Assembly (NCBI GenBank): GCA_947302655.1 | Contig: CAMYVW010000003.1 | Coordinates: 12,280-76,279 of the forward strand | Direction of reading: 5' to 3' | DNA: 64,000 nt | Source of the DNA: an uncultured Mycoplasmatota bacterium | GTDB lineage: Bacteria; Bacillota_I; Bacilli_A; RF39; UBA660 | In this document: one piece after another, positions 22,158 through 42,499 of the stretch | How the letters are laid out: each line of letters opens with the position of its first letter | How positions within the stretch are numbered: the first letter of the stretch is position 1 | Program-made: the position numbers and the translations under genes | Notes under the pieces: generated by a model | What the model was told of the DNA's origin: nothing | Database searches by the model: none | What the model saw: the letters and a program-made list of their open reading frames with translations, nothing else

Positions 22158-22163
22158 CTAAAT

Positions 22164-22236: not shown

Positions 22237-22311
22237 AATAATAGGCAAATCAATTATAACATAGTAAATATCTATTATTCAAGCTATTTCATATACTATA
22301 CTGGTGATACA

Positions 22312-22734: not shown

Positions 22735-22768
22735 AATAATCACTTCAAACATGAAGTGATTATTTTTA
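22735..22768. terminator. bidirectional terminator between convergent genes
   Basis: AATCACTTC-AAACAT-GAAGTGATT plus a T-run. Confidence 0.55.
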
Positions 22769-23986: not shown

Positions 23987-23998
23987 ATAATCACTCCT

Positions 23999-24562: not shown

Positions 24563-24573
24563 AATACAACCTC

Positions 24574-25710
24574 CTACAAGTACTCACTTGTTTTTGACAA
24601 ATAGTCTTCCATTTCTTTTTGAAATTTTTGTTTAATATCATTACTTCCAACTGCATTTGGATTTTTCTTTTTCTCCATTTCAGCACTTAAAAGCTTTAAT
24701 AGTTCAGATTCTTTAATTTTAATTCCATTTTTTAATAGTATATTTACGGCATTTTGAACCTGATTCATAACAATTAATAGAGCATAACTCTTAAGTTTTT
24801 CTTTTTCTACTTTTTTATCTCTTGTAATAGAATCTAAAGCATAATAATTCATTAAAAATGCCTCATCCATGATGCTTTTAATTAGTTTTCCACTTTTAAT
24901 TTTACCAGATTCTATATCATCTGCTTCACTGTTCATAACACTATATAAGTAGTCCCATAATTTTAAAGCCATTTGAAAGTTTGGATTCTTTAAAATTAAG
25001 TTAGTTTTTTTAATAGGCGGTGATACAAGTGGAGCATGAAGTTTTTTTAATGAAGTGATTAAAGTACTTGCAAGCCAAGGATTAATATAAGTCTTTTTTA
25101 TACTTGCAAGTTTCTTTTTAAGATTTTCAACTATTTTTTCAAAATCATTATCACCATTATTAACAATATTAGTTGGTACAGTTACTAAATTTAACTCTAC
25201 CATTACTTTATCTCTACCATTTGTAGTTTCAGCTCTATATTCTAAAGTTTTTTCATTCTTTGGAACAATATTTTTTAGAGCTTCTTCTTTCTCTTGAATA
25301 AACTTTAATAAATTTATAATTAAAGTATAAATAAATCTATTTTCATAAGTATTATATGTTTCTTCTCTAAATAAAACTAATAACTTAGATGGTAAAACAT
25401 CACCAGTTTTTTCATCTATTTTATCAATATAATCAGTATGTTTAGATAAATCTTTAATACTTTCAATACTAGTTTTTCTGGCTTTTTCAATTTTTGTAAC
25501 ATTAGTTTCACCAACTAGTACTACTTTGGGATTACGAACAATATTGTCAATATATGGGCAAACTTCTTCAATAATTTCAAGCCACTCTAATGAGTTAATA
25601 TCACTATTAAGTGAAGCATCAAACTTGATAGATGATTTGTTGTTTTTAAGAAAGTTTTGACTATTTTTCTTAAGCATCTCATCTACAGTTAAATTAATAA
25701 CCTTTCCCAT
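24574..25710 (-). CDS. McrC-like partner protein of the adjacent McrB-family GTPase; no obvious PD-(D/E)xK motif
   Basis: An 11-nt gap separates it from sipW and a 21-nt gap from the GTPase. The segment ETYNTYENRFIYTLIINLLKF resembles the McrC N-domain motif (…LPNRLIKSALLRLL…). The C-terminal half appears helical and has no recognisable nuclease signature. Confidence 0.35.
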   Translation of the reverse strand: MGKVINLTVDEMLKKNSQNFLKNNKSSIKFDASLNSDINSLEWLEIIEEVCPYIDNIVRNPKVVLVGETNVTKIEKARKTSIESIKDLSKHTDYIDKIDEKTGDVLPSKLLVLFREETYNTYENRFIYTLIINLLKFIQEKEEALKNIVPKNEKTLEYRAETTNGRDKVMVELNLVTVPTNIVNNGDNDFEKIVENLKKKLASIKKTYINPWLASTLITSLKKLHAPLVSPPIKKTNLILKNPNFQMALKLWDYLYSVMNSEADDIESGKIKSGKLIKSIMDEAFLMNYYALDSITRDKKVEKEKLKSYALLIVMNQVQNAVNILLKNGIKIKESELLKLLSAEMEKKKNPNAVGSNDIKQKFQKEMEDYLSKTSEYL

Positions 25711-25731
25711 ATTAATCCCTCTTTATTCTAA

Positions 25732-27273: not shown

Positions 27274-27275
27274 AT

Positions 27276-29282
27276 TTATTTATACTCTCCTATTCTTTTT
27301 AAAATATTATCAATAATTATTTTATCATAAATTTGTTTTGGTATGTTTTTTGATAACTTGCTTAAATCCATTTTTTTATCCGTAAAATAATAATCTGACA
27401 TAAAGATATAAGCTAGTTCTTCACTTGTGTATTCCTTATATTCGTCAAAAATCAAAGCAAATAAATATCCTTTTTTTCTTAATCTCATTATATCATCATT
27501 ATTTTGCAAAATATTAGAAACTGTAGAAGTAATTATAATATGATTTTTTGCATATTCATTATCAATAATAGATGCTATTCTATCTAGTTTCTTATCTTTT
27601 CCGTATAATGGATTAGGAATATAAACAAAATATTTAGCGTTGCTATTACCATTTAAAATATCTTTAACTACTCTACATAAAATTAGATTAAATAAAACAG
27701 ATAGTTTATCTTCTGATACAATTCCATCACTATAAGTTTTATCAACAATATATTTACTATAAACCTTGCTAAACTTAATATTATAGTTTAAATAAACACC
27801 GAAGTAATTAGGTTCATCTTTAAATCTATTATATATTGCTATAAAAGAATTTGTTTCAAATTTCTTAATAATTTCATTAATAATTTCACTTGAATATCTA
27901 ATAACAGCTTTAATATTATTTAGTAACAAGTCATTATCTACATCAAAATACTTATGTAATTCTTTCTCAAAATCAATATTTTTCTTATCTTCTATATCAT
28001 ATATAAATAATAATGCATTAGAGTAAAGTTCTATTGCTTTAGTCTTTGTATCATCATTTTGATTCTTCTTTATTAAAGCTTTCTTATTATCGTTAAAAAT
28101 CATCTTAAAAGATTTTCTTTCTTCAGGTAGTGAATAATATTTTAAATAAACATATTGTTTAATAAGTTCGCTTCTAAAAGAAGATTTTTTAATATAAGAA
28201 TATTCATCATCTAATAAAAGATCAATTATTTCGTTATACATTATATTTTTGATAATAAATAATTTATCAACGATATTTTTAGCCTTTTTAGCATTAATTT
28301 TTTCTCTTAAGTAATCCTTAGTAATTACTTTTTCTTCTTTCTCTTCTTCTATTTCTTCTGCTTCCAAAACTATATCATCTTGTTTAATTTTAACATCTAC
28401 TTTTTGATCATCTTCAACTGGTTTAATAGATGTATCACTATTTGGTTCTTCAATATCATCAACTTTAATGATCCTTAATACTGCAGTTTTAGATAAATCT
28501 TCTTCTTTTATCTTATTATCTTCATTAAATTCAACTACATTACCTGACTCACCATCAACAGTAACTTTTCTAAATAGAATAGTTTTACTCATTTCATCTT
28601 CAGGTTCATCATCTTCATCGTCATCAGATGCAAATACATCAGAATAATCAGGTTTAAATTTATTTTCTTCACTTGATGTAGTATTAGTAACATTAGTTAC
28701 TTTTATAGTATCATTTCGATGTTTAAAACTTCTAATCTTATTTTTAATTATTCCAATATACTTATTTAATATCTTATTAGAAGATTTCTTTCCAGCATTT
28801 AAATAAAGGTTAACAAAATACAATGTAATAATTAAGAAAATAATAACTATAGGATTAAAAATAGTTTTTTTAAGGAAACCAAAAGAGTGAAGAACTTTTT
28901 TTACTTTACCAACAATTTGGCTTCTATCAATTGGTTTATCTTTAGCATTATTAGCATCACCTTTAGTTACAAAAGAATCTTGGTAGGCTTCAACTACACG
29001 GTGTGTAATAAAATTATTATCCTGTTTATATGTAATAATATCACCTATTTTGATATTATTATCACTTTTAACTAAAATCCAATCTCCAATTTCAACTGAT
29101 CCATGCATACTGCCAGTTTGAATTTCAAATAGTGAATAACCAAATAAACTAGAATGATCATTTTTTAAGATTTTAACTTGAATAAAAGAATAAATAGAAG
29201 CAAGCAAAAAAAGGGCAAATAATACTATTAAAGCATTTAAAGCATAATCAGTAATTTTACTAAAAACTTTTACTTTCTTCAT
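27276..29282 (-). CDS. SipW-type signal peptidase fused to a ~450-aa C-terminal (predicted cytoplasmic) domain of unknown function
   Basis: N-terminal TM, then QTGSMHGSVEIGDWILVKSDNNIKIGDIITYKQDNNFITHRVVE…TKGDANNAKDKPIDRSQIVGKVKKV, which carries the SipW catalytic Ser/His boxes. A second TM follows, then an acidic linker DDDEDDEPEDE, then a 450-aa domain. The protein is 668 aa. Confidence 0.65.
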   Translation of the reverse strand: MKKVKVFSKITDYALNALIVLFALFLLASIYSFIQVKILKNDHSSLFGYSLFEIQTGSMHGSVEIGDWILVKSDNNIKIGDIITYKQDNNFITHRVVEAYQDSFVTKGDANNAKDKPIDRSQIVGKVKKVLHSFGFLKKTIFNPIVIIFLIITLYFVNLYLNAGKKSSNKILNKYIGIIKNKIRSFKHRNDTIKVTNVTNTTSSEENKFKPDYSDVFASDDDEDDEPEDEMSKTILFRKVTVDGESGNVVEFNEDNKIKEEDLSKTAVLRIIKVDDIEEPNSDTSIKPVEDDQKVDVKIKQDDIVLEAEEIEEEKEEKVITKDYLREKINAKKAKNIVDKLFIIKNIMYNEIIDLLLDDEYSYIKKSSFRSELIKQYVYLKYYSLPEERKSFKMIFNDNKKALIKKNQNDDTKTKAIELYSNALLFIYDIEDKKNIDFEKELHKYFDVDNDLLLNNIKAVIRYSSEIINEIIKKFETNSFIAIYNRFKDEPNYFGVYLNYNIKFSKVYSKYIVDKTYSDGIVSEDKLSVLFNLILCRVVKDILNGNSNAKYFVYIPNPLYGKDKKLDRIASIIDNEYAKNHIIITSTVSNILQNNDDIMRLRKKGYLFALIFDEYKEYTSEELAYIFMSDYYFTDKKMDLSKLSKNIPKQIYDKIIIDNILKRIGEYK

Positions 29283-29351
29283 AATTATCTACTATCCTAT
29301 ACTACATAATATTCTACCATAATCACGGTTTTTTTCCAAGAAAAAAAACTC

Positions 29352-29894
29352 TTACGAGTTTTCTATTTCATCATCATTTTTTCCATATTTTATCTCAATT
29401 ATTAATGTGTATAATTGATAAATAAATAGGAAGAAGTTAGGAACTAATATTATAAACAAAAAGCCCCATTTAGATTCAATAACTGAAAGATATGTACCAA
29501 TATTAGAATAAGACTTAGTTCCAGTTCCCATTATAAACTCTTTTGAATATGTTTCGCCATTTTCAAATGATATTGAATCTTGATCTTCAAATACTTGACC
29601 TACTTTACCATATTGAACAGATGCTCCACCTTGACCATCTAAATGATAAGTAAATACCATATCTCCAGCTTTATAATCCTTAATTAGTTTATTTTCAACA
29701 AAAACCAAAGATCCTTTTTTATAATTTTCAGATGAAAATTCTTTTTTTACTATTAATAACGAAGTATCACCAAATTGTGTTATTCCATACTTATTATGAT
29801 TTAAAACAAGCACTGTCATTGTTATTGTAAATGCAAGAAAAATAACAATTAATGTTGTTGTAAATATCTTTTTAACTAACTTAAATCCTTTCAA
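29352..29894 (-). CDS. SipW-like paralogue with degenerate catalytic motifs (possible pseudo-peptidase)
   Basis: Same N-TM, beta-domain, C-TM architecture and KKGSLVFVENKLIKDYKAGDMVFTYHLDG box as SipW. It has ITQFGDTSLLIV where GSMEP should be, and no THR box. Confidence 0.4.
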   Translation of the reverse strand: MKGFKLVKKIFTTTLIVIFLAFTITMTVLVLNHNKYGITQFGDTSLLIVKKEFSSENYKKGSLVFVENKLIKDYKAGDMVFTYHLDGQGGASVQYGKVGQVFEDQDSISFENGETYSKEFIMGTGTKSYSNIGTYLSVIESKWGFLFIILVPNFFLFIYQLYTLIIEIKYGKNDDEIENS

Positions 29895-29951
29895 TTTCGC
29901 ACCACCTATACTATAAAATTATCATAACATACAAGTTATTATTCTTCAACA

Positions 29952-30839
29952 CTAATTACACCCACTAGACTCTCGTATTACAAAATCATTTAAAGATAAA
30001 TCACTATTATTACTTCGTTTGAAAAATTTAATTTTAGAACTAGAATCTGCATTAACAATAGTTTTAAATCCATTAACATAATCATTAGCATCATACTGAA
30101 GATTAGTAGTTAAATTATTAATATCTAATACTCTATTAGTACTATCAAAAGTAATTTGTAAGCACTTATTTTGTGAATAAGTATTATTCAATATTAATTC
30201 ACTAAAATTTGAATAAACCTTATTTATATTAGTTATTTCTCCACTACTTTTAATATTTCTTTGTAACTTAAAAACACCAGATAAACTCTTTGAATAAGGA
30301 CTTGTACTAGTTGCAGTTATTCTAACATCAATTTCTTTATCTTGATCATTTTGATTATTAAAAACAATATTAAAATAGTTGTTTTGCGATACTTTTTGTT
30401 TTACCCAATTATATCCATCGACTTCACATTCAGTCTTATTATAAGATGTAACATCAGTTTCATCTTTCTCATTTACACATCTAGCATTACTTGATAAAAC
30501 AAGATTTAAAGTACTATTATTACTATCGTTAATTGTACAACTAGCATTAATATTCTCAGTTAAAACTTCACACGTTACAGTATATCTAATATCAAAATCA
30601 GTTATTAAGTTTTCACTAGCATAATTTTTCAAAGTAAATGTTGTACTACCACCATCCCACAGAAGATTGGTATTATTTTTATTGGTTTTTAATTCGTTAC
30701 TTTCGAAATAAAATCCCTTAGATTTTAAGTAGTATCCTTTCATATAACTAGAAGTATATCTACCAAAAGAAATGATTGCTAAAGAAAATGATATAGATAT
30801 AAGTATAAACATAATTAATACTTTTTTCTTTTTATTCAT
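29952..30839 (-). CDS. secreted Cys-containing Asn/Ser-rich protein with SipW-cognate-like signal (minor fibre/accessory component)
   Basis: MNKKKKVLIMFILISISFSLAIISFGRYTSSY…; 295 aa with six Cys. Confidence 0.45.
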   Translation of the reverse strand: MNKKKKVLIMFILISISFSLAIISFGRYTSSYMKGYYLKSKGFYFESNELKTNKNNTNLLWDGGSTTFTLKNYASENLITDFDIRYTVTCEVLTENINASCTINDSNNSTLNLVLSSNARCVNEKDETDVTSYNKTECEVDGYNWVKQKVSQNNYFNIVFNNQNDQDKEIDVRITATSTSPYSKSLSGVFKLQRNIKSSGEITNINKVYSNFSELILNNTYSQNKCLQITFDSTNRVLDINNLTTNLQYDANDYVNGFKTIVNADSSSKIKFFKRSNNSDLSLNDFVIRESSGCN

Positions 30840-30847
30840 AAAATCAC

Positions 30848-31375
30848 CTATATTTTTTGATAACTTTTGATTTCAACATTAATATAATCAATTAAGTTTT
30901 TATACTCTTCAGTGTTATAGTTTCCATCAAAAGTAATTCGAAGTTCAAATGTATTTAATTCATTTCTTGTATGAGATAGTTCAAACGAATTAGTTTTACA
31001 AACTAGTTCATTATTTTCATTTCTACTATAAGTCTCATCACAAGTTAGAACTAAAGTATTATCCTTGTATAAATTTATTACAAGTGGAGCATAATGTGGT
31101 GTTATAATTGACAATTCATATAAAATTGATACATCACTTCTTGTATTATTCTTCACGTTAGTAATAGAAAAATTATGACTCATACTCTCTCCAGGAGATA
31201 GCTCACCTACAGGTATTTCTAATCTGTCAGTTACCTCAGAGTTAAAGACAAAACCAGCAAGTTTTTGATCAACACTTGATGCAACTACACCTGAATTAAA
31301 ATAAGAGTATGTAATTCCAAGACTAAACGTTAAAATTAAGAGTGAAATAATAATTATTAATACTTTTATTCTCAT
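30848..31375 (-). CDS. compact TasA/CalY-like protein with SipW-cognate signal
   Basis: SLGITYSYFNSGVVASSVDQKLAGFVF… then …LSPGESMSHNFSITNVKNNTRSDVSILYELSI, which is the TasA-fold core. 175 aa. Confidence 0.5.
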   Translation of the reverse strand: MRIKVLIIIISLLILTFSLGITYSYFNSGVVASSVDQKLAGFVFNSEVTDRLEIPVGELSPGESMSHNFSITNVKNNTRSDVSILYELSIITPHYAPLVINLYKDNTLVLTCDETYSRNENNELVCKTNSFELSHTRNELNTFELRITFDGNYNTEEYKNLIDYINVEIKSYQKI

Positions 31376-31384
31376 ATTACACCT

Positions 31385-34300
31385 CTACCTAATTATAAAG
31401 TACTTATTAATAGTATTAATGTACTCATCACCATTATATAAATCAAATGCTAATCTATAATATCCTTTTAACATATTAGTTGTATTAATAAATAAATCTA
31501 AATTATTAACAGTTGCAGGATTATTAGCATTATATAATGTAGCCCTTCTTGCAAGATAATAGACATTATTTACATATTGATCAAGTTGTGTTGAAGTATA
31601 ATCTTGAATATCAACAAGTGTATACTGCTGATTATATGCAGATAAAGTATTCTTTTTATAAAGTGAATATTTAATATTAGGATTATTTAATCCACTAACT
31701 ATTACACTATAATCAAGCTCTGCAGTAGATGGCTTATTATATATCATATCTTTATTATTAGTAACATCAAATACATATGTATAATTCTTTTCTTCTGTAG
31801 AATTAATTAAAGGAATTAAAACTCTACTATTACTATTTTGTGAAATAATAGTTTCACCATCATACGAAATATATGGAGTTATAGTAATGCTATAATTTCC
31901 ATCTAATAGATTATTTAAAGATCTATATGTAGAAATCTTAAGAATAAAGCTAGAAGTAGTATTAGTATTAAGATTTATTTTTATATTACCATTATTATCA
32001 GGAACATAAATATTATCAGAAACGCTAAATATAATACTCTTATAATAGTCTCTATTTATTACATTACCATTACTATCAACAATATTAATTAAAACTCCAA
32101 TAGTTTTATCATTAAAGAAGGTATCAGTAGCTTGTGAATTTAAAACATTGTTATAAAGTGTAACATTAGTTACAGAATCTGTATTATAGTTAATATTTTG
32201 ATTAAAGTTTGTTGTTAAAGAGTAACTAGTATTATAACTATCAGATGTTAAAACACTAAATGTGGTTTCATTGATATATGGTCTTACAATATTCATATTG
32301 TTATCAAGACCAACAATATTTAAGTAAATATTATGCATATCAGAACTTATAGTTGAAGAACTAAAATCAATGATTAAAGAAAATTCTTCGCTCTGAACAG
32401 ATCCACTCTGATATAAATTATTATTTCTTTTTCCAACAAGATTAAATAAACCAAAACTATAATAATATTTATTATTTAAGCTAATTGCATCATTTTGATT
32501 AACAGTATATGAATATGTATTATTATTAGTTTTATCAAATAACATAATACGTGTGCCGGTTGGCAGTAATGCATTAGAAATTAAATAGTGATCGAAACTT
32601 TGTTGATTTGTTGATGCATATGTTATATTCATCATTATTGATGATTTTTTTGTAATGATATTTCCTGATTCAAAACCAACAGGTTTTAAATCAGAAACAG
32701 CATATCCATCATAAATAATAAGTGGTGTTGATGCATAAGACACATTTCCAGCCAAATCAGTTGATCTAACATATAAAATATACTTTCCAGAAGAAGTTAT
32801 ATCAATTGGATTTACATAATCAGTCCACTGAACTGAACTTAAATCATTAATATCATTGTTTAAAAAATAATTTAAAGAAATACTATCTTGTGAATTATCA
32901 GTGCTAGATGCACTAATAGTTGCACCAGTATTAATGTAAACTTCATTATTATTAATTGAAGAATAAATGTTATTATTAAAATCTATACTAATTAAAGGAC
33001 CAGTTTTATCAATAATAATATTATCAGAATTAATATATGTAACTTTACCAGATAAATCAACAAACTTAACATAAATTATATAAGAGCCTTCATTTTGAAC
33101 TACTACAGGATCTGTATATGAAGTCCATGAAACATTATTTAAATCACTTGTTGATAACACTTGATCTTGATTACTTATATAATAATACTTTGTAGTTTGA
33201 AGAAGCTGACTATCATCTGCGATTGTAAAAGTTATATTAGAAGATATATACTTCTTATCAATAAATAGTGAGTATGTATCATAAGTATCAAGGTTTAAAT
33301 ATAATTTTGTATGATTATCACTGTTATCATCAAAATATAAAAGAGGATAATCACTTCCATTAAATACCCATTTATTTTGACTATTTGAACTATAATTATT
33401 TAAAGATACAAACTCATTGTAACTAGTTAGATATGTTTTATCTTTTAAATTATTATCAATTACCATATTTGATAAAACTAAATTATTATTTCTTGCATAA
33501 GTATAATAAATATTTTGTGAATTTATATTACTATTATAAAGATGTGAAATTATATCATTATCAGTTGTTAAAAAACTGTTTTCAAAAACTAAATTTGAAT
33601 TTATTAAATATCCAATAAAGCCATTACTTATAGTTCCAGCATTATAAGAATTACTAATTGAACTATTGCCCTTTAAAACTCCTATTAAATTTGAATCATT
33701 TGAATAACCATTTCCATAACTATAAGAACTATCGATATTAGTATCAATCGCATAACCTATTAATAAACCAGTTATATCTCCACCATAAACGCTTGCTCTA
33801 TTAATAATATTTGAAATTGATGAACCTTCAGAATATGCAGCAACAGCACCATTTATTGATAATGATATTTGGTCATAGTCTGCATAAAGTGTTGTTTCAT
33901 CATAAAGACTAGCGCTAGATTCATCAATTAAAAGTCCACTTATATAAATACTATCAAGTGTTCCATTTGTTAAATTTGTAGTTAAAATAGCTTTATTCTT
34001 AACAACAATATTATTTAAATATAAGGATGATACATCACCACTTATATTTTCAAATAATGGAGAGTTGCTATAATAACCATATATAGTCTTAAAATTACCA
34101 TCTAAATAACCTTCAAAATTCGACATTGAAGGGAACATATTAAGAGTTCCTACTTCTTCTTGAGTAAAATCAGAAGAGCTATAATACTTATTATCATTAA
34201 CAAAATATGCATTACCATTTAAATTATATTTTAACGTATCATTTTCATAATAAAAATAACCGTCATTAATTACAATATCATTTATAATTTTAAAATATTT

Positions 34301-34555
34301 ACCATCATATGTATCATTTTCCAAGTTACTTGCAAAATAAGCAAATTCTTCAGGTGAAGAAATAATATACGGATTATTTCTTGTTCCACTACCAGATCTA
34401 TATGATGAAGCAACATTACCTGACCATACTCTAGCATCTGATAATGATGTTCCCTTTTTAAATCTGCCAAATGCCGGTAATATACAAAAAGGAAGTGATA
34501 TTAAAGCAACCATAAAAATAGCATAAATTATTTTTCTATTTTTACTTATACTCAT
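31385..34555 (-). CDS. 1056-aa secreted Asn/Ser/Tyr-rich protein (putative fibre tip/adhesin) with SipW-cognate-like signal
   Basis: Signal …LISLPFCILPAFGRFKKGTS. The GTRNNPYIISSPEEFAYF segment is typical of beta-helix surface proteins. Composition is extremely N/S/Y/T-rich throughout. Confidence 0.5.
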   Translation of the reverse strand: MSISKNRKIIYAIFMVALISLPFCILPAFGRFKKGTSLSDARVWSGNVASSYRSGSGTRNNPYIISSPEEFAYFASNLENDTYDGKYFKIINDIVINDGYFYYENDTLKYNLNGNAYFVNDNKYYSSSDFTQEEVGTLNMFPSMSNFEGYLDGNFKTIYGYYSNSPLFENISGDVSSLYLNNIVVKNKAILTTNLTNGTLDSIYISGLLIDESSASLYDETTLYADYDQISLSINGAVAAYSEGSSISNIINRASVYGGDITGLLIGYAIDTNIDSSYSYGNGYSNDSNLIGVLKGNSSISNSYNAGTISNGFIGYLINSNLVFENSFLTTDNDIISHLYNSNINSQNIYYTYARNNNLVLSNMVIDNNLKDKTYLTSYNEFVSLNNYSSNSQNKWVFNGSDYPLLYFDDNSDNHTKLYLNLDTYDTYSLFIDKKYISSNITFTIADDSQLLQTTKYYYISNQDQVLSTSDLNNVSWTSYTDPVVVQNEGSYIIYVKFVDLSGKVTYINSDNIIIDKTGPLISIDFNNNIYSSINNNEVYINTGATISASSTDNSQDSISLNYFLNNDINDLSSVQWTDYVNPIDITSSGKYILYVRSTDLAGNVSYASTPLIIYDGYAVSDLKPVGFESGNIITKKSSIMMNITYASTNQQSFDHYLISNALLPTGTRIMLFDKTNNNTYSYTVNQNDAISLNNKYYYSFGLFNLVGKRNNNLYQSGSVQSEEFSLIIDFSSSTISSDMHNIYLNIVGLDNNMNIVRPYINETTFSVLTSDSYNTSYSLTTNFNQNINYNTDSVTNVTLYNNVLNSQATDTFFNDKTIGVLINIVDSNGNVINRDYYKSIIFSVSDNIYVPDNNGNIKINLNTNTTSSFILKISTYRSLNNLLDGNYSITITPYISYDGETIISQNSNSRVLIPLINSTEEKNYTYVFDVTNNKDMIYNKPSTAELDYSVIVSGLNNPNIKYSLYKKNTLSAYNQQYTLVDIQDYTSTQLDQYVNNVYYLARRATLYNANNPATVNNLDLFINTTNMLKGYYRLAFDLYNGDEYINTINKYFIIR

Positions 34556-34571: not shown

Positions 34572-35642
34572 CTAAAATTCATAACCTGCTAAATCTTTTT
34601 CAAGATCTAAACTTAAATTTAGTGGAGCTCCCTCAGAATGAACTTCTAAAGCATCTATATCTTGTCCTTCTATCCAAAGGTAAACTCTAACTTTAGTAAT
34701 TCCATTTGGTATTTGAAACAATGGTTCAGAAAATTCATCGTCTTTTCTTGTTTCCTGAAGAGCAAAGTGTTCTGTATCAAAAGAACCGCTAGAAGAAATA
34801 AGCCCACTTTTATGATCAAGTCTTCTTCCTTCTTTAATAACTGCATACGTAGGAACATATGTGTTATCAACAAGATCAATACCAAATTCTTTTACAGCAT
34901 CAATAGATTCTTGATTGTGCTTCAAACTATTTGGTTCATAAATAAGCGAAACGCATTCATTATTACACTGTAAATTTTGAATAGTATATACATCAGCTTT
35001 TAAATCCGTTTCTCCAATTTTTACAAATCCGAGTCTAATAGAGTTCATAATATCTTCCATTTTTTCCCTAGTTTCTTGATCTGCAGTTTCATCAAACTCA
35101 ATATAAGTTCCACTACTTAAATAAAGATTATCTTTATATGGAGATCCAGATACATTCTTTAAAAATATATCAAAAGCTATATAGTTACTATACTCACTTG
35201 GACTATCTTCTGAAATCAAATCAGTATTAACAAATCTTTTACCTCTTCTTGCTTTATCAGTATATTTTCCCATTGATCCTGAATAAACATCAAATTTATC
35301 ATTGTTTGGAGAAGAAATACCATTTGATGAAACTGACCAAAGACCATTAGTAGCCCATTGATTAGTATGATTAGGATAATTTTTCTTAACTTCATGTATA
35401 ACAGACTCTCTAGATATTTCAATAGAATCAGAAAAATTAACACCATCTAAAGAAATAAATAAACCTGTATCTGTTGATACTTTAACATTAAAGAATTTAA
35501 TTTTAACATTTAAGGATGCTGAAAACCATGCATAAGTTGCAAAAAGAAAAACTACACCAACAAAAAATGTAACAAGAAAGATATATTTAGTTTTCTTAGA
35601 AAACTTTGGAATATGAAGTTTTTCTTTTATGTTAGTTTTCAT
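34572..35642 (-). CDS. TasA-like fibre subunit paralogue (SipW-cognate signal)
   Basis: …FLFATYAWFSASLNVKIKFFNVKVSTDTGLFISLDG…, and a C-terminal motif KVRVYLWIEGQDIDALEV shared with the two major-subunit genes. The RBS GGAGGA precedes the ATG at 35642. Confidence 0.55.
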   Translation of the reverse strand: MKTNIKEKLHIPKFSKKTKYIFLVTFFVGVVFLFATYAWFSASLNVKIKFFNVKVSTDTGLFISLDGVNFSDSIEISRESVIHEVKKNYPNHTNQWATNGLWSVSSNGISSPNNDKFDVYSGSMGKYTDKARRGKRFVNTDLISEDSPSEYSNYIAFDIFLKNVSGSPYKDNLYLSSGTYIEFDETADQETREKMEDIMNSIRLGFVKIGETDLKADVYTIQNLQCNNECVSLIYEPNSLKHNQESIDAVKEFGIDLVDNTYVPTYAVIKEGRRLDHKSGLISSSGSFDTEHFALQETRKDDEFSEPLFQIPNGITKVRVYLWIEGQDIDALEVHSEGAPLNLSLDLEKDLAGYEF

Positions 35643-35654: not shown

Positions 35655-35734
35655 TAATAAATTAAGGAATAATCAGTAACCGACTATTCCTTAACTTTTA
35701 TTTGTAACAAAACATAAGCTTTGTTTATTAATTA
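35655..35734 (-). promoter_or_regulatory. inter-cistronic hairpin (partial terminator/attenuator) downstream of the major-subunit genes
   Basis: GGAATAATCAGTAACCGACTATTCC imperfect hairpin in an 80-nt gap. Confidence 0.3.
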
Positions 35735-37420
35735 TTATTCATTAGTAACAGTTACAGTTACAACTTCAGTAGCTACGTTTCCAGCTTCATCTGCTACTTC
35801 ATATAATACTCTGTATACACCAGGTACTGCATTATTTACAGTTCCTGTTATAGTAGCATGAATTCCAGATCCTTCTGGTCCATACCATTCATCTGCATCA
35901 TCTGCAGTGTCATGAGTATATGGAGTTAAGTTATCAGTAATAGCTGTAATTGTAGGTTGAGTGAATGTACCGTTCTTAGCTATAGTTTGATTTTGAGATC
36001 CGCTTAATGTAATAACAGGAGCAGTCTTATCTATAGTTTTTAACTTAGTAATAATTTGAGCTTCTGTTGGACTTACACCTTCACCAAGTTCTAATTCTGT
36101 AGCTAAAGCTTCAATTATTTCAGCTCTTGTTTGGTTAGGTCCTTCACCTTGATTTAGTACTGGTCCTTGATAGTTAATATCATCTTCAGTAAATCTTTCT
36201 TTAGTGAATCCGAAGTTAACAGCTATTTGTTTACCTATAGAAGCAAAGTCATAGTTATCAATGTCTTGTCCTTCAATATAGATATACACTCTAACTTTTG
36301 TAATACTATTTGGTGCTAAAGTAATGAATGTAGGTCTTTCAACACCAGTTTTTAATTTCATTGTATCAGTAAAGTATGGATATGCAAATAAGTATTTACC
36401 AGCATTTCCTTCAGCAGCACTAATAGCAATAGCCTCAGTATCAGCTATATCTCCAGTATAGCTATTAAATGCACTACCATCATAGATATCAACTGAATTC
36501 ATAGCAGTGATTTCTTTACCAATCGCATATGTTGGATATGTTTGACCATCAACTACTGTTCCACACGCACCTTCATAAGAAGCAGCTAAGCTTGTATCAG
36601 TTCCAGCAGCTTTTCTTGCTCTACAAGTAGTATTATACCAAGTTAGAGCATCTGGTACGTGGTTTGTATCATTTGGTTCCCAAATTTGAGCTGTACGGCA
36701 AATACCAGTTACAGTCGAATCAGTTGCACAAGTAATACCTTGAATTGTTGATGCATCTGTATTAGTTGCCTCTACACGACCAATTTGTGCAAATGCAACA
36801 CGAACAGAATTTTCAATACCAGTGTTTGCAACGCCTGTTGATCCAACTACAACCTTAGAATCATTTGTTAAATAAATTGCTTCTTCGTTAAGTGGATTAT
36901 TTGTCTGGTAATATTCAGCACCAGATGAGTTTTTAATAAATAAGTCGAATGCAACATAACCATCAGGTGTTGTAGAATCGTTATTAACTCTACTAGCCAT
37001 TAATCTATAACCACCTGCAGTAGTTGTTAAACTACCTTTTTCAAATAATGTTAAACGACTTGTTGTTGTATTAATAATACCAATTGATGACATAGGAATT
37101 AATCCACGTCCACCCCAAGTATTTGTATTAGTTGGGTATGGATTTCCTTGTGCAGTTAATGTATTATCTGCAGCAGTCTCTGCAGCAGGGTTTCTAAAGT
37201 TTGTACTGTTAATTGCTACTGTATCGCTCCAGTTTACACCATCAAGTGATAACTGTAAGTCTTCTGTTGCAGCAATACGAACTTCGAATGGAGAAACATT
37301 AACAGTTCTCATACCAATAAACCATGCATAAGTTGCTGTTCCTAGGACGATTGCCATAAAAGTAAATACTATAGCAAGTCGCAATATTCTTTTTTTCTTA
37401 CTAGAATTCTTCCTTTTCAT
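35735..37420 (-). CDS. TasA-like major fibre subunit with C-terminal Ig-like (DUF5011-type) domain
   Basis: …LGTATYAWFIGMRTVNVSPFEVRIAATEDLQLSLDG…VRVYIYIEGQDIDNYDFASIGKQIAVNFGFTKERFTE… followed by …NAVPGVYRVLYEVADEAGNVATEVVTVTVTNE. Its Thr/Ala/Gly-rich composition and GC-richer codon use resemble the ribosomal-protein genes in this window. Confidence 0.6.
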   Translation of the reverse strand: MKRKNSSKKKRILRLAIVFTFMAIVLGTATYAWFIGMRTVNVSPFEVRIAATEDLQLSLDGVNWSDTVAINSTNFRNPAAETAADNTLTAQGNPYPTNTNTWGGRGLIPMSSIGIINTTTSRLTLFEKGSLTTTAGGYRLMASRVNNDSTTPDGYVAFDLFIKNSSGAEYYQTNNPLNEEAIYLTNDSKVVVGSTGVANTGIENSVRVAFAQIGRVEATNTDASTIQGITCATDSTVTGICRTAQIWEPNDTNHVPDALTWYNTTCRARKAAGTDTSLAASYEGACGTVVDGQTYPTYAIGKEITAMNSVDIYDGSAFNSYTGDIADTEAIAISAAEGNAGKYLFAYPYFTDTMKLKTGVERPTFITLAPNSITKVRVYIYIEGQDIDNYDFASIGKQIAVNFGFTKERFTEDDINYQGPVLNQGEGPNQTRAEIIEALATELELGEGVSPTEAQIITKLKTIDKTAPVITLSGSQNQTIAKNGTFTQPTITAITDNLTPYTHDTADDADEWYGPEGSGIHATITGTVNNAVPGVYRVLYEVADEAGNVATEVVTVTVTNE

Positions 37421-37448
37421 ATATATTTCCTTTCCTTCTCAGTCTATA

Positions 37449-39056
37449 TTATTCTGTTACAGTAACAGTAGAAATTGCTTCAGCATAATTTCCTTGCCAG
37501 TCACTTACTAAGTACCTAACTACATATGTACCTGCAGTAGCAACTACTGGGTTAGTTACTTGAACCTTAGTAGTTAAATCAAATGTACACTTATTATTAG
37601 CCCATGTTCCTTGAGCAGTGTTACATTTAGCTTCAGTATCTTCAGCACCAACGTCTGATGCAGTTACACCAGCCATTGGGTTATAACTTGCAACTTGTGC
37701 AACTGTTAAGTTCTTAGTAGCTTCTACACCAGCTATAATAGGTTTAATCTCATCACCTGTTGGCATGTTAGGTCCATCTATACCTTGAGCTTCTTCTTCA
37801 GTAAATCTCTCTTTAGTAAATCCAAATGAAACATTTATTTGTTTTCCTATAGATGAGAAATCATAGTTATCAATATCTTGTCCTTCAATCCATACATAAA
37901 CTCTTATCTTAGTAATACTATTAGGAGCAAGTGTAATAAATGTTGGGCGATTAATACCAGTTAAATTTTTCTCGGTATCAGTAAAGTAATCGTAGGCATA
38001 TAGTGGTTGGCTATCACTATAATTTGTTCTTGTAGTAGCAGAATATCCATTATATTGAGTTCCATCATAAATATCAACTTTATCAGCTATATCAACAACA
38101 CGTCCTACAGCATAAGTATTTTTTGCAGTACCATTAGCAACTGCTGTACAAGCTCCATCTAATGTATAAGATGTTGCAAGTGTAATATCAGTTGGATCTG
38201 TTATTGGATCAACTGCAGCCTTTCTAGGTCTACAAGAAGTATTGTAATAACTTATAGCATTATTAACGTGAGCAATATCATTTGGTTCCCAAATTTGAGC
38301 TACACGGCAAATACCAGTTACAGGAGAGTTTTCTCCAGGAACACATTTAATTCCAGTTATTGTATTAACATCAGTTGTTTTTGCATTAACACGACCAATT
38401 TGTGCAAAAGCTACACGAACTGAATTTTCAAGTCCAGTATTAGCAACTCCAGTTGAACCAACACTAACTTGAGAATCTGTAGTTAAATAAATTGGTTCCT
38501 CATTCAAAATATTATCTTCTGTGTAGTATGCTTGACCTGAGAAGTTCTTAACAAATAAGTCAAATGCAATATATCCACCATTTTCAGTATTAAATCCATA
38601 AGCATTTACTGAATTTGCATACTGCTGATTAGTTTGATAATTGTGAATTCGGCTTGCAAGAAGTCTATAACCACCAGGTGTAGCAGTTAAACTACCCTTC
38701 TCATACATCTTCATTGTAGAAGATGCTGTGTCGATTTCACCAATTGAAGAAATTGGTTTTAGGCCAGGATTGACAGCTCCAGTACCAAGTCCTGCCCAGT
38801 TATTAACATTACCTGTATAAGATACTGAACTAAAGTTACCACTATCTATTGTAACAGTCGTATCCCAGGTATTTCCATCAAGAGATAAAAGCAAACTATC
38901 AGTACTTGCTATGTCAATTTCAAAGCTTTGAACATTAACAGCTCTCATACCGATAAACCATGCATAAGTTGATACTGCAAATACTATTAATAAAAGAAAT
39001 GAAATAACAACTAATCGCTTAACTCTTTTAGATTTTAGATTTTCATTTTTGTTCAT
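37449..39056 (-). CDS. TasA-like major fibre subunit, tandem paralogue of 35735-37420
   Basis: …AVSTYAWFIGMRAVNVQSFEIDIASTDSLLLSLDG…IRVYVWIEGQDIDNYDFSSIGKQINVSFGFTKERFTE…; it has the same architecture and codon bias. Confidence 0.6.
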   Translation of the reverse strand: MNKNENLKSKRVKRLVVISFLLLIVFAVSTYAWFIGMRAVNVQSFEIDIASTDSLLLSLDGNTWDTTVTIDSGNFSSVSYTGNVNNWAGLGTGAVNPGLKPISSIGEIDTASSTMKMYEKGSLTATPGGYRLLASRIHNYQTNQQYANSVNAYGFNTENGGYIAFDLFVKNFSGQAYYTEDNILNEEPIYLTTDSQVSVGSTGVANTGLENSVRVAFAQIGRVNAKTTDVNTITGIKCVPGENSPVTGICRVAQIWEPNDIAHVNNAISYYNTSCRPRKAAVDPITDPTDITLATSYTLDGACTAVANGTAKNTYAVGRVVDIADKVDIYDGTQYNGYSATTRTNYSDSQPLYAYDYFTDTEKNLTGINRPTFITLAPNSITKIRVYVWIEGQDIDNYDFSSIGKQINVSFGFTKERFTEEEAQGIDGPNMPTGDEIKPIIAGVEATKNLTVAQVASYNPMAGVTASDVGAEDTEAKCNTAQGTWANNKCTFDLTTKVQVTNPVVATAGTYVVRYLVSDWQGNYAEAISTVTVTE

Positions 39057-39119
39057 ATACTTTCCCTTCCATATATTTAATAGAGTAATAATTGCTTATA
39101 CATGTTGCCTACAATCTAC

Positions 39120-39175
39120 TATATTACATATAGATTTTAACCTTATATTTGTCAAAAGTCAATTAAAATGTCATA
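39120..39175 (-). promoter_or_regulatory. promoter of the major-subunit genes
   Basis: Minus-strand TTGACA (39151-39156), a 17-nt spacer, then TATATG/TAATAT, in the 160-nt gap 5' of 37449-39056. Confidence 0.4.
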
Positions 39176-39187
39176 TTTTGTAGAAAT

Positions 39188-39231
39188 AAAAGACGAAAAA
39201 TTATTACTATTCGTAACTATTTTTCGTCTTT
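39188..39231 (-). terminator. intrinsic terminator after the 538-aa gene
   Basis: 12-bp perfect stem AAGACGAAAAAT / ATTTTTCGTCTT followed, on the minus strand, by a U-run. The stem overlaps the last codons KDEK*. Confidence 0.55.
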
Positions 39232-40824
39232 ACTATTTAACAGTTTGGAATTTTGTACAATAAACCATATTTTTTCAACAGATAGTGTACTTTTTTCTAT
39301 TTTATAAATCCTTTTAATGAACTCTATTTTATTAACTAGTACATCTAAGTTATCTTCATCTAAATCTTCAGAATTAATGTTAATATTTTCCATACGATAT
39401 CTATCTGATATTATTGAAGAAATACTAGCATCATCATTTATGCTAATTCCTTTAATTATTACATTATTTGGATTAGAAGCAAAATCATCAAATTGATCGC
39501 AAAGTTCTACAAATTGATTAGGGTCATCATGATCAAATATTTCTTTAAAAATTTCAATTTTAAAGAAAGTATAACAATAAAACAAATTAACAATATCACT
39601 TACATGTATGTTTCTATCAGATTGAAGCAATGAAATTTGTTTTTCAAACAATAACTTATCTCTTTTTAAATACATATCAAACAATTTGTTAGCTTGTTCT
39701 AATGAGGCATCTGTTGATTTTGATACAGCCTTATTTTTCTTGTTAAATAATGAACCAACATTTTTTACAAAATCTAATTTATTTGATCCTGTTAGCTTTG
39801 AAATAATTGCATTAATATCCTTTTCAACTTTTTTGATCTCATTATCAACATCACTAACAGTTCTCTTCTTAGAATAGTTTTCTTTAAAATATTCAAATAA
39901 AGGCATAAATTTTAAATAATACTTATACTCTATTGCATTCTGTTTCAATTTTTCTAAAACTGCAAGTAACTTGTTCATAGTCGCTTCATCACTATAATCG
40001 ATTTCATTAATTGTTAAAGTAGAAAGGGTAGTACTTCTAAATTTACTATCTTCAAAATAATTATTTATATCAATATCATTTTTAATTGCTTTTTCAACAA
40101 TATCAGCAATATCTTCTTCTAAAGAACTAGAGTAATCATTATAAAGTTTAGAATATTTATCTTTTAAATCATCATTTGATGATGATTTAGTATCAGCAAG
40201 AATCTTCTTCTTTTCATTTGCAATATATTCTTCAAAGTTCTTCTTATACTTATCAATCAAAATTATAAAATTCAGTTCGATGTGTTTTATAATATCATGA
40301 TTTTTCCAATATATTTCTTCAAACACTTTTGATAAGCCATCATAATTGTTCTTTGATTCAAAGTAAACTGTCATATATTTATTAACATATGAGGTTAAAT
40401 TAAAATCATCACTTTTTAAAACGACACCGGCCTTTTTGAATTTTTCAATTATGTTACTTATAAATATATTTATGTCTTCAAAAGTGTATTCAGAGTAAGA
40501 ATTTATATCATAAATAGCTTCATCAAGCTTAAGTTTTTCTTTAAATGAATTGCATGTATTAAATAAAAATAGTTTATCTTTAAAATCATCTAAAGATTTT
40601 TTAATCTTTTCTATATCATGTTTTTCTGATGAATATTTAAATGATGAACTTTTAGCGTTTATATATTTTGTAACTGCATCTTTGTAGTAATTATAAGACT
40701 TTAAAATTTCATCAATTTTTTGATTATATTTTTTTTGATTTGTTTTGTTATTTGTTGGAAGCGATTGAATCAAGGTTTTCTTTGATTCAATATCATTATT
40801 TATAAAATCCAAAAAATTATTCAT
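39217..40824 (-). CDS. hypothetical cytoplasmic Lys/Glu/Asp-rich protein (no TM, coiled-coil-like)
   Basis: I chose the start at MNNFLDF because GGAAGGAG lies 9 nt upstream. I recognise no domain in its ~535 aa. Confidence 0.45.
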   Translation of the reverse strand: MNNFLDFINNDIESKKTLIQSLPTNNKTNQKKYNQKIDEILKSYNYYKDAVTKYINAKSSSFKYSSEKHDIEKIKKSLDDFKDKLFLFNTCNSFKEKLKLDEAIYDINSYSEYTFEDINIFISNIIEKFKKAGVVLKSDDFNLTSYVNKYMTVYFESKNNYDGLSKVFEEIYWKNHDIIKHIELNFIILIDKYKKNFEEYIANEKKKILADTKSSSNDDLKDKYSKLYNDYSSSLEEDIADIVEKAIKNDIDINNYFEDSKFRSTTLSTLTINEIDYSDEATMNKLLAVLEKLKQNAIEYKYYLKFMPLFEYFKENYSKKRTVSDVDNEIKKVEKDINAIISKLTGSNKLDFVKNVGSLFNKKNKAVSKSTDASLEQANKLFDMYLKRDKLLFEKQISLLQSDRNIHVSDIVNLFYCYTFFKIEIFKEIFDHDDPNQFVELCDQFDDFASNPNNVIIKGISINDDASISSIISDRYRMENININSEDLDEDNLDVLVNKIEFIKRIYKIEKSTLSVEKIWFIVQNSKLLNSKDEK

Positions 40825-40951
40825 TATTAGCATCTCCTTCCTCTAATTTAGAGTCTTCTAGAAATGCGATGAATGAATTGATTGCATCTAATGTTTCAAT
40901 TAACTCTTTTAAAGTTAAATAAGACATATCAAAGTCTTTCTTAGCTTCCAC
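40817..40951 (-). CDS. small acidic protein (44 aa), translationally coupled to the 538-aa gene
   Basis: RBS AAGGGTGA followed by a GTG start (VEAKKDFDMSYLTLKELIETLDAINSFIAFLEDSKLEEGDANNE). Its stop overlaps the next start (ATGAATAA). Confidence 0.3.
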   Translation of the reverse strand: MEAKKDFDMSYLTLKELIETLDAINSFIAFLEDSKLEEGDANNE

Positions 40952-40966: not shown

Positions 40967-41686
40967 TTAAATTTCTTTATCATATTTTTTAACATCAATT
41001 TCTTTAAATTCAGAATTGAATTCCATATGTAATTTTATTTCTCCACCAAGTAAATTGTCTGTGCAGTCAATATCAGAACCTTCAAGCCAAACAACAATAG
41101 TATATTTATCAATATCACCAGGTTTAAAGTTTTCCCTGTGATCAAGAGTAACTAACTTATCATTTTGAAAAGGTATGGTTCCTTCTTCGGGATTCCCATT
41201 TATACCTATCTTAGCATATGTTGTAGGTTCACCATTTTTATATATTCTAATTCTTATGGCAGTATCAATATTTTTTATTACATCATCAATAATTGTTTCT
41301 GACCAATAATCAGATGTATCAGTACCTGTATTTTCAATGTAAAAAGTATAAGCTATATAATTATCACCATTATGGGAACCATCAATATTATCAATATTTT
41401 CAGGTAACCATTTATAAGATATGTTGTCAAAATAATCTACTGCTTTTGCATATAATTCACTTCTAAACACCTTATAATCCGGATCATCATATATGATTAT
41501 TCCTCTTTCAAAATAAAGGTTCTTATCTAGTGTAATAGTAAAATTTCCATTGTTGTAAATAATTCTCATAACAATATAGGCTAGAAGAAGTAATAAAAGT
41601 ATTACAAGAACAGTTAATCTAACAATTCGTCTAATTTTTTTCTTTTTGCTAAGTTTTTTTACGCTAACTTCAACTTCATGACTCAT
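40967..41686 (-). CDS. membrane-anchored protein sharing the C-terminal W-x-EG-x-DID motif of the TasA-like subunits
   Basis: KKKKIRRIVRLTVLVILLLLLLAYIV… is an uncleaved-looking anchor with no YAWF box. …KYTIVVWLEGSDIDCTDNLLGGEIKLHMEFNSEF compares with VYIWIEGQDIDNYDF…VNFGFTKE. Confidence 0.45.
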   Translation of the reverse strand: MSHEVEVSVKKLSKKKKIRRIVRLTVLVILLLLLLAYIVMRIIYNNGNFTITLDKNLYFERGIIIYDDPDYKVFRSELYAKAVDYFDNISYKWLPENIDNIDGSHNGDNYIAYTFYIENTGTDTSDYWSETIIDDVIKNIDTAIRIRIYKNGEPTTYAKIGINGNPEEGTIPFQNDKLVTLDHRENFKPGDIDKYTIVVWLEGSDIDCTDNLLGGEIKLHMEFNSEFKEIDVKKYDKEI

Positions 41687-41875
41687 GCCTACCATCACCA
41701 TACACTATTCTAGTTAATTATAGAAAAATTAAAATTGAATGTCAATTATATCTAATCAATTTTAAATTAACATATATATTTACAGTAATTTACAAAATTA
41801 TGTACAGTTTGCTTTGCAAATAAATTGTATAGAACTGTAAAATATACTATAATATTTACAAAAGGAGGATTATGT

Positions 41876-42499
41876 GTGAAAAAAGTTTATTTACTATTAA
41901 TACTAGTTTCTTTTTCATTCTGTCTTTCTTTTATGAGCAGCACATACTCTAGGTATGTAGCTGGAACAACAGGAAATATTGACATACCATTTGCCAAATG
42001 GCAAATTCTTTTAAATACCCAAGATATTACTAGTCAAAATAATTCACAGTTAACATTTACCCCTGTAATTGAAACATCAAATAATGTAAATAGTGGTACA
42101 ATAGCTCCTTCATCAAAAGGATACTTTGATATAAGTATTAACCCTGAAAATGTTGATGTATCATTTAGTTACGCTATTAGTTTATCAATAGATGAAGAAA
42201 ATCTACCTGACCTTATTATTACAAAATATGCTATATTACCAGATAATTTTCAAGAAGGAGATACATTACAATACTCTACAATCACAAACAATATTATTGA
42301 AAATAGTCTTTACTATAACAACAACATTCAAAACTTTAGTTTCTCAGAATTTACAATTAGAGTATATTTTGAATGGCTAGAAAATGATCAAAATGAAGTA
42401 ATGGATGATGATGATGATACACAAGTGGGATTGGACGCTGCAGATCAAGAGACAACATTTAATATCTCTGCAAATATATCATTTGAACAAATAGTATAA
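41876..42499 (+). CDS. TasA-like secreted protein with SipW-cognate-like signal (divergently transcribed)
   Basis: AGGAGG followed by a GTG start gives MKKVYLLLILVSFSFCLSFMSSTYSRYVAGTTGNIDIPFAKW…GTIAPSSKGYFDISINPENVDVSFSYAISL. Confidence 0.5.
   Translation: MKKVYLLLILVSFSFCLSFMSSTYSRYVAGTTGNIDIPFAKWQILLNTQDITSQNNSQLTFTPVIETSNNVNSGTIAPSSKGYFDISINPENVDVSFSYAISLSIDEENLPDLIITKYAILPDNFQEGDTLQYSTITNNIIENSLYYNNNIQNFSFSEFTIRVYFEWLENDQNEVMDDDDDTQVGLDAADQETTFNISANISFEQIV

Follow-up and report, generated by a model that had tools for sequence, protein, structure and literature searches.

The question raised by this locus is what two large, adjacent genes of an uncultured Mycoplasmatota bacterium, here called g535 and g561, build for the cell that carries them. 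They lie on the minus strand of the window, that is, the whole stretch of 64,000 nucleotides (nt) of contig CAMYVW010000003.1 analysed here, and a preliminary description, made from the sequence, had taken them for codon-optimised subunits of a TasA-like fibre. Our answer is that they probably encode the anciently duplicated major subunits of a secreted surface fibre, akin in principle to that of the Bacillus biofilm protein TasA, within a conserved ~20-kb locus of uncultured Bacilli of low guanine-plus-cytosine (GC) content, many of them labelled Mollicutes or Tenericutes. This reading draws on the paralogy of the two genes, the conserved termini of their products, their fold neighbours, the SipW-type peptidases of the locus, synteny, a promoter and a hairpin, and composition and codon bias; we infer where the proteins are cleaved, that they polymerise, that they do so by donor-strand exchange, that they are abundant and that both subunit types assemble together. 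The preliminary description was right in outline, but it overstated the codon optimisation and the SipW box, and the likeness to TasA that it named is to be taken as putative. The two open reading frames (ORFs) that it named, of 561 and 535 amino acids (aa), are both present, and they comprise the following parts, where Ig stands for immunoglobulin.

37449-39056, minus strand: g535, 535 aa, transcribed first; signal peptide with a TYAWF box, beta-rich core of ~385 aa and divergent C-terminal Ig-like tail
38955-38969, minus strand: TYAWF box of g535 (T30-Y-A-W-F34), read from translation and alignment
37791-38942, minus strand: core domain of g535, residues 39 to ~422, 60% identical to the g561 core
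37458-37601, minus strand: divergent Ig-like tail of g535, residues 486-533 matched
35735-37420, minus strand: g561, 561 aa, the second major-subunit paralog
37319-37333, minus strand: TYAWF box of g561 (T30-Y-A-W-F34), at the end of the h-region of the signal peptide
36185-37306, minus strand: core domain of g561, residues 39-412, a beta-sandwich ending in a PNSITKVRVYIYIEGQDIDNYDF...FGFTKERF hairpin
35747-36013, minus strand: C-terminal Ig-like domain of g561, residues 470-558, after a low-confidence linker and two short helices

g535 and g561 are clear paralogs. BLASTP aligns them with an E-value of 2e-152 and 45% identity over 596 columns including gaps, and identity in a full MAFFT alignment is 54-55%; the figure of ~60% given in the preliminary description holds for the core (60% over residues 1-415) and not for the proteins overall. 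Both products share one layout, in which a basic n-region and a hydrophobic h-region lead to the T-Y-A-W-F box and a beta-rich core of ~375 aa, followed by a linker and an Ig-like domain. The core ends in both with PNSITK.RVY..IEGQDIDNYDF..IGKQI.V.FGFTKERF, and the motifs quoted earlier, RVY.(W/Y)IEGQDIDNYDF...FGFTKERFTE and ...NAVPGVYRVLYEVADEAGNVATEVVTVTVTNE, are found verbatim. An insert at about residues 215-345 of the g561 core carries four conserved Cys (C231, C241, C266 and C286). The appended module, ascribed earlier to both proteins, is recognised as PF16403 (formerly DUF5011) in g561, with 29.4 bits over residues 470-558 against a Pfam gathering threshold of 27, but falls short of this cut-off in g535 (19.9 bits), whose tail still aligns to the Ig domain of g561 by BLASTP. 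The fold of the g561 domain matches BT2262, Big_3 and SraP.

The core belongs to a large family that no database describes. Homologs of g561 amount to more than 2000 proteins in 90% clusters, all unnamed or called 'DUF5011 domain-containing', and the core family forms 1672 clusters at 50% identity (E<=1e-3). Beyond the Ig tail, single sequences and two profiles give no match in Pfam, NCBIfam, PHROGs or PDB sequences, and no description of the family was found in the literature. Relatives among the GTDB species representatives number 244; their records are mostly titled as Bacilli, Mollicutes, Tenericutes or Bacillota bacterium, with a sizeable minority titled otherwise (e.g., 'uncultured Muribaculaceae'), and rumen, pig, chicken and human gut are among the sources that these titles name. 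A prophage or defence-island origin of the pair was considered and rejected, given the lack of PHROG matches and a chromosomal synteny that extends across 71 loci.

Conservation within this family is concentrated at the two ends of the core. In a set of 60 members sharing only 25-59% identity, the YAWF motif and V40 are at least 90% conserved, and the most conserved stretches, besides scattered polar residues, are the N-terminal YAWF...V and the C-terminal R.Y...EGQD.D...K hairpin. One would expect such conservation if a subunit used its N-terminus to pair with the edge of the C-terminal sheet of another. The scattered residues, invariant or nearly so in the same set, are S58, S111, D159, R207, H254, T297, E383, Q385, D386 and K407 (36200-37249 in g561); together with the four Cys they might serve as a metal site, in disulfides or in a covalent cross-link.

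The AlphaFold2 model of g561 has a mean predicted local distance difference test (pLDDT) of 84.5 and a predicted template modelling score of 0.83, and that of g360, a third paralog of the core encoded next to the pair, has a pLDDT of 85.8. In both models confidence falls to blocks of 51-73 over the 10-15 residues that follow the signal helix, and then rises to at least 90 in the beta core; the linker to the Ig domain is also of low confidence. The core is modelled as a beta-sandwich whose nearest, weak neighbours are subunits of donor-strand filaments: the Sulfolobus thread subunit scores 5.8, FmlH 5.4, CanX of the cannulae 5.2, FimH/FimG 5.0 and the TasA fibre 5.0 (132 residues, 3.3 Å), and FimA, CS17, CfaB, CooA, AbpA, DUF1102 tubes, PapG and PapA score lower. 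The g561 core has neighbours of like kind, with 5.3 against the thread subunit and 4.9 against TasA. As such scores also arise between unrelated sandwiches, the predicted fold is compatible with a TasA-like jellyroll, but not specific for TasA. Foldseek against the PDB returned matches to the Ig domain only.

Regarding expression, the pair appears to form a transcription unit of its own, as had been proposed, and both a conserved promoter and flanking hairpins support this. The elements in question are three.

39182-39225, minus strand: terminator-like hairpin with a GUCUUUUAUUUCU tract, where the upstream gene g538 ends
39134-39162, minus strand: sigma-70-type promoter of the g535-g561 unit, -35 TTGACT (39162-39157), 17-nt spacer, -10 TAAAAT (39139-39134)
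35659-35697, minus strand: stem-loop directly 3' of g561, with an 18-bp stem, ahead of AAUUUAUUA and of the GGAGG ribosome-binding site of g360

The promoter matches the consensus at 10 of 12 positions and would leave a 5' untranslated region of ~75 nt. Promoter-like sites are no more frequent in the window than chance allows (51 observed against 47.7 expected), and a consensus scan alone is uninformative in such AT-rich DNA; the call is credible because ATTGAC and TA(A/T)AAT at a 17-nt spacing are invariant upstream of six orthologous loci in alignment. The promoter named earlier, TTGACA-17-TATATG, does exist at 39155-39127, but the conserved one lies 7 nt upstream of it. An upstream terminator had also been claimed, and a terminator-like hairpin was found there: the whole 61-nt stretch at the end of g538, including a second small hairpin, folds with a free energy (dG) of -11.1 kcal/mol (z -3.1). 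Its hairpin is low in GC and was overlooked by the consensus scan, and T-rich tracts occupy the same place in orthologs. Between g535 and g561 there are only 28 nt, with a ribosome-binding site as their sole content and without a terminator, so that the two genes are taken to be co-transcribed. The stem-loop behind g561 is the more stable one (dG -18.6, z -5.85, none of 200 shuffles folding as well), and it is kept in six orthologous loci with one compensatory change of a G-C to an A-U pair. It is probably a partial terminator or a 3' stabiliser of the mRNA, and in either role it would set the ratio of major to minor subunits, with more mRNA for the major ones than for the genes downstream. 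No known RNA element was found in the locus with Rfam.

Two further conserved elements flank the promoter in six orthologous loci. A TTCNACA...TTCGAC-like element (39165-39185, minus strand) lies ~20 nt upstream of the g535 -35, and a TATAGTAGG-like element (39110-39130, minus strand) lies just downstream of the -10; both are candidate sites for a regulator.

The Thr/Ala/Gly-rich composition of the pair and its GC contrast with the neighbours, both noted before, are borne out, as GC is 0.35 in the pair and ~0.24-0.29 in the flanks. The excess lies wholly in codon positions 1 and 2 (0.46/0.45) and stems from amino-acid content, with Ala at 10.4/8.8%, Gly at 8.0/7.7% and Thr at 13.8/11.4%, where 15 other genes have 3.9, 4.7 and 4.7%; Ala and Gly match the set of ribosomal and elongation-factor genes (9.0/7.8%). 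Synonymous optimisation as the source of the GC-rich look was rejected, since g535 and g561 both have a GC of 0.132 at position 3, a value shared with the rest of the window, and the synonymous ratios gct/gca, act/aca and ggt/gga are average. The codon adaptation index (CAI), a check suggested in the preliminary description and trained here on the ribosomal and elongation-factor genes of the window, is 0.688 and 0.659 for the two genes, ranks 22 and 29 of 67 and below the 0.71-0.83 of the reference genes. A shift towards ribosomal-type codons is nevertheless present, modest to intermediate in size, significant and strongest in g561. It emerges with a preferred set made of the codons by which ribosomal genes differ from other genes here (C-ending two-fold codons, ATC and CGT), which was picked after the fact, but independently of g535 and g561. 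With this set, g561 reaches a fraction of 0.240, rank 8 of 67 and above every other non-ribosomal gene (background 0.109; Fisher p 9e-7), and g535 reaches 0.183 (p 0.003), while the g360 paralog (0.082) and the giant neighbour g1056 (0.066) stay at or below background. What is left of the claim of codons optimised like those of ribosomal genes is therefore this moderate shift: the CAI is mid-table, position 3 is unchanged and the codons once cited reflect amino-acid content. The pair is under moderate translational selection and has a composition that resists the AT pressure of the genome, without reaching the ribosomal class. Both features fit high expression, and they distinguish the pair from the other genes of the locus, as would suit its most highly expressed, major structural components.

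The duplication is old. The g535 orthologs in loci L001, L002 and L013 are 77, 60 and 73% identical to it and hold the same position, and those of g561 are 81, 60 and 72% identical and follow in the same order; because orthologs are thus 60-81% identical and paralogs 45-52%, the window pair is regarded as old and stable. Across 70 loci, the major subunit is encoded by one copy in 15 (some of which are cut by contig ends), two in 32, three in 13, four in 8 and six in 2, and core identity between adjacent copies ranges over 53-89% (median 61%). In a different sub-lineage two types, assigned by simple clustering with the unweighted pair group method with arithmetic mean, strictly alternate (6,2 / 6,2,6,2 / 6,2,6,2,6,2), which suggests that an A/B unit was amplified and hence that both types are needed. 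The C-terminal tail varies in length: in 163 copies it measures at least 80 aa in 76, 30-79 aa in 33 and less than 30 aa in 54. The Ig tail is thus optional in the family, as fits a peripheral decoration.

The genes around the pair form a locus of ~20 kb whose order is conserved across 71 related loci, as established by tblastn and ORF classification. This order runs from g224, on the divergent strand, through g244, one to six major-subunit genes, g360, g538 (of variable position), g1056, g175, g295 and sip180 to a block that extends from sip668 to g406. Its members in the window are given below.

41825-42499, plus strand: g224, TasA-like, divergently transcribed
40967-41701, minus strand: g244, small conserved protein, encoded ahead of the major-subunit genes in nearly all loci
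39217-40833, minus strand: g538, 538 aa, rich in Lys, Asn, Asp and Glu, apparently helical, without signal peptide or database match
34572-35642, minus strand: g360, third core paralog, without Ig tail and of ordinary composition
22766-34555, minus strand: rest of the conserved locus, g1056 to g406, as in the lines that follow
31385-34555, minus strand: g1056, giant surface protein of 1056 aa
30848-31375, minus strand: g175, distantly TasA/camelysin-like
29952-30839, minus strand: g295
29352-29894, minus strand: sip180, degenerate peptidase homolog without the GSM catalytic motif
27276-29282, minus strand: sip668, SipW-type peptidase domain fused to ~500 residues without a recognised domain
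25732-27273, minus strand: McrB-like AAA+ protein, 513 aa, with an N-terminal transmembrane segment and a coiled coil
24574-25710, minus strand: DUF2357 protein (McrC-like N-terminal domain)
23999-24562, minus strand: sip187, SipW-type peptidase
22766-23986, minus strand: g406, which carries a TYAWF N-terminus

The block of sip668, the McrB-like AAA+ gene, the DUF2357 gene, sip187 and g406 is downstream of sip180 in the window and in L001, L002, L011 and L021, and upstream of g224/g244 in L019, L025, L031, L053 and L058. As its position differs between loci, the linkage survives rearrangement. Linkage of the subunit genes to an archaeal-type signal peptidase I (SipW) is a conserved property of these loci. 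Judged by their match to TIGR02228 (cut-off 51.85), sip187, with 83 bits, and the N-terminal domain of sip668, with 72.9 bits, are genuine archaeal/SipW-type signal peptidases I; the degenerate sip180 is probably inactive. g360 is related to the core family with an hhalign probability of 100%, and its likely start is M5 of the ORF, which gives 356 aa, identical to the 356-aa gene call P0121; it is a candidate minor subunit. The small protein g244 shares with the core only the C-terminal P..I.K..V..W.EG.D.D...G..I hairpin (hhalign 75%, 41 columns), and could, speculatively, be a candidate for the base, anchor or nucleator of the fibre. It is equally speculative that the products of g360, g1056 and g175/g295 may be minor or tip components. 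In the g175 family, 8 of 30 members match PF12389, with a best E of 3.6e-6. g538 occurs in 51 related loci, always inside the fibre gene cluster.

Some other observations concern this locus. A perfect consensus promoter, TTGACA-17-TATAAT, stands upstream of g244 (41717-41745, minus strand) and faces the divergent TasA-like g224. The McrB-like and DUF2357 genes sit between two SipW-type peptidase genes, and in at least 8 distant genomes they keep their link to the locus despite the permutation of blocks; the AAA+ protein matches the PADLOC model PDC-M26A (1e-37) and, weakly, the McrB model, and the pair could be either a defence system or an assembly factor. A tRNA-Trp gene (anticodon CCA; 22163-22236, minus strand) directly follows g406 and marks the end of the locus, and an ORF on the plus strand (22162-22734) has its first ~25 codons antisense to this tRNA, so that its start is probably later.

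Among known appendages, several can be set aside. The C-termini of the pair (...VTVTNE and ...TVTVTE) have neither a sorting signal nor a hydrophobic tail, and no sortase match was obtained among 17 scanned locus proteins. The type IV pilin motif G-F-x-x-x-E is missing; there is instead a 14-residue basic n-region, an h-region and TYAWF, and the locus peptidases are type I/SipW-like. The chaperone-usher route, defined by a periplasmic PapD-like chaperone and an outer-membrane usher, does not apply, and none of the S-layer anchor domains of Pfam (SLH, CWB2, LysM-type) is found in the pair. g535 and g561 are thus not sortase, type IV or chaperone-usher pilins, nor anchored S-layer proteins. Tandem flagellin and pilin genes offer a likeness in arrangement, with diverged major-subunit copies that are strongly transcribed and a stem-loop before the minor-subunit genes, but differ in protein fold, secretion route and assembly machinery.

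The closest relative by context is the TasA/TapA/SipW system of Bacillus subtilis (PDB 8AUR, 5OF1; PF12389). In both systems Sec-exported subunits are encoded beside SipW-class peptidase genes, and the cleavage motif of TasA resembles the one proposed here, T-[WY]-A|[AW]-F, with Phe at P2': the TasA sequence used for comparison is identical to 8aur_A, whose chain starts at A28, TasA is cleaved at TWA|AF, and Phe at P2' has been described for TasA (PMC10269814). The window locus also encodes small TasA/camelysin-like proteins (the g175 family), and donor-strand exchange by the N-terminus, free of chaperones, would be a further likeness by analogy. There are also differences. The core is about twice as large (~375 against ~210 aa), with a Cys-containing insert and an optional Ig-like tail; there are one to six tandem major-subunit genes here and one there; and the locus is far larger, since it encodes three peptidase homologs, of which one carries ~500 extra residues and another is degenerate, along with the membrane-anchored McrB-like AAA+ protein, its DUF2357 neighbour and two proteins of 1056 and 538 aa, the latter lacking a signal peptide. 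The BsaA/BsaB/BsaC and SipW system of Clostridium perfringens (PMC11580942) is likewise a SipW-linked operon, with two tandem TasA-like paralogs, one of which is secreted and builds long oligomers, its disordered N-terminal segment acting in donor-strand exchange. BsaA is recognisably related to TasA and is locked by an intermolecular isopeptide bond, N35-K74, catalysed by E56; the family of the window has other sequences and another size. Archaeal filaments of the donor-strand type also count as close, namely the Sulfolobus thread Saci_0406 (7PNB), the Pyrodictium cannulae CanX (9H8B) and the Pyrobaculum bundling pilin AbpA (7UEG). Donor-strand assembly has been reported for TasA (PMC9674648), BsaA (PMC11580942) and AbpA (PMC9245690).

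The model that we propose is as follows. g535 and g561 would be transcribed together from their own conserved sigma-70 promoter, and the stem-loop after g561 would let only part of the transcripts reach the downstream genes for minor subunits. The pre-proteins would be exported by Sec, and a SipW-type signal peptidase of the locus would cut them after T-Y-A of the near-invariant TYAWF box. For g561, this proposed cleavage would give a mature N-terminus W-F-I-G-M-R-T-V-N-V as candidate donor strand. The freed strand (WFIGMRTVNV...), itself highly conserved, would then enter the beta-sandwich of the following subunit alongside its C-terminal hairpin, in a donor-strand exchange like that of TasA, BsaA and the archaeal threads and cannulae, and the flexible Ig-like module, optional in the family, would project from the fibre.

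Several results weigh against this reading. g535 and g561 are of TasA type by context, but they fail the sequence tests for TasA and camelysin. PF12389 has no match in g561, g535 or g360 at E<=0.1, and Pfam was negative for 60 diverse members of the core family, with 0 of 60 matching PF12389 at E<=0.01. The core-family profile meets a single TasA sequence with an hhalign probability of 0.1%, and against TasA and the g175 family of the locus at most the signal-peptide region is aligned. The box that the preliminary description called SipW-cognate does resemble the T-W-A|A-F site of TasA, but it did not hold up as such: the N-termini of g561, g535, g360, g406 and g175 have no match to TIGR04088 (cognate_SipW, cut-off 19) even at E<=10, and the TasA control scores 41.6 bits. 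To these are added the mid-table CAI and the fact that no cell-wall anchor or nucleator was identified with confidence in the locus.

A composition rich in Thr, Ala, Gly and Asn and poor in Lys is common to S-layer proteins and pilins, so the composition of the pair also suits abundant coat proteins, secreted or membrane-anchored and S-layer- or adhesin-like, which would exist as monomers or in a two-dimensional lattice, would form no donor-strand fibres and would expose the Ig tail as a binding module. S-layer genes often come as tandem paralogs, the matches of the Ig tail include domains from S-layer proteins and adhesins (SlpX, SbsC, Sap, SraP, Rib), the fold similarity to filament subunits is weak, and in the AlphaFold2 model the N-terminal hydrophobic segment is a continuous helix to residue 38 that could be a membrane anchor. 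Yet those S-layer matches are confined to the optional tail, and the nearest structural neighbours of the core itself are filament subunits; the pair has no SLH, CWB2, LysM or LPXTG module, and the near-invariant YAWF box with two or three dedicated SipW-type peptidase genes favours specific processing. We consider such a coat unlikely. It is very improbable that the core is instead an extracellular enzyme, such as a hydrolase or a 'camelysin-like' protease, a view that could appeal to the invariant S58, S111, D159, H254, E383 and D386 across members of 25-59% identity and to the related family name Peptidase_M73, which historically implied protease activity. These polar residues might equally bind metal or form cross-links, no enzyme family is matched by sequence or fold, and multiple tandem copies and the composition suit a structural role; moreover, the protease assignment of camelysin is itself a likely misidentification (PMC11580942).

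Even if a surface fibre is accepted, the two paralogs could be interchangeable alternatives, retained for dosage or to allow antigenic or niche variation, and not obligatory partners in a heteropolymer. Copy number varies from 1 to 6 among genomes, with the 15 single-copy loci already mentioned, tail lengths vary, and hairpins between copies in several lineages would permit separate regulation; in the window, however, the pair is 28 nt apart and co-transcribed, the order of orthologs is kept in L001, L002 and L013, as of an old and stable pair, and A and B alternate strictly in the other sub-lineage. Mere interchangeability is rated as quite unlikely. At the opposite end, the locus might encode a new fibre-assembly system and not just a passive matrix protein like TasA, in which system g535- and g561-type subunits form an obligate A/B heteropolymer with dedicated peptidases (one with the ~500-residue fusion), and the McrB-like nucleoside triphosphatase (NTPase) and its McrC-like (DUF2357) partner assemble or regulate the fibre. 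The peptidase and NTPase genes remain neighbours of the subunit genes also in loci where the two blocks have changed places; as a whole, this extended proposal is quite unlikely.

Elsewhere in the window, a plus-strand gene outside the fibre locus (10316-11473) encodes a predicted membrane-anchored protein with a DUF5011-like Ig motif (TAPGTYDIKITATDINNNSVEKVAVLTI) and a Pro-Thr linker. Three small ORFs (6381-7637, minus strand) lie between rplL (7655-8023) and rpsL (5829-6242), the usual place of rpoB-rpoC, and in two of these a hydrophobic segment at the N-terminus is combined with the pattern K-G-Y-I...C...C at the C-terminus. The gene for ribosomal protein L11 (9453-10130, minus strand) has an acidic C-terminal extension of ~60 residues, and an L10 leader (Rfam RF00557) is found at 8554-8685.

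If g535 and g561 are indeed fibre subunits, widespread uncultured Bacilli of gut, rumen and digester would build their main surface appendage from a protein family that has not been described. The chaperone-free donor-strand principle of the SipW/TasA type would then extend to much larger, modular subunits with Ig-like tips, and the locus would provide a target for studying attachment to hosts, feed particles or partner cells. How such fibres are assembled in Gram-positive envelopes could be approached through the stable pairing of A and B and through the locus-linked NTPase.

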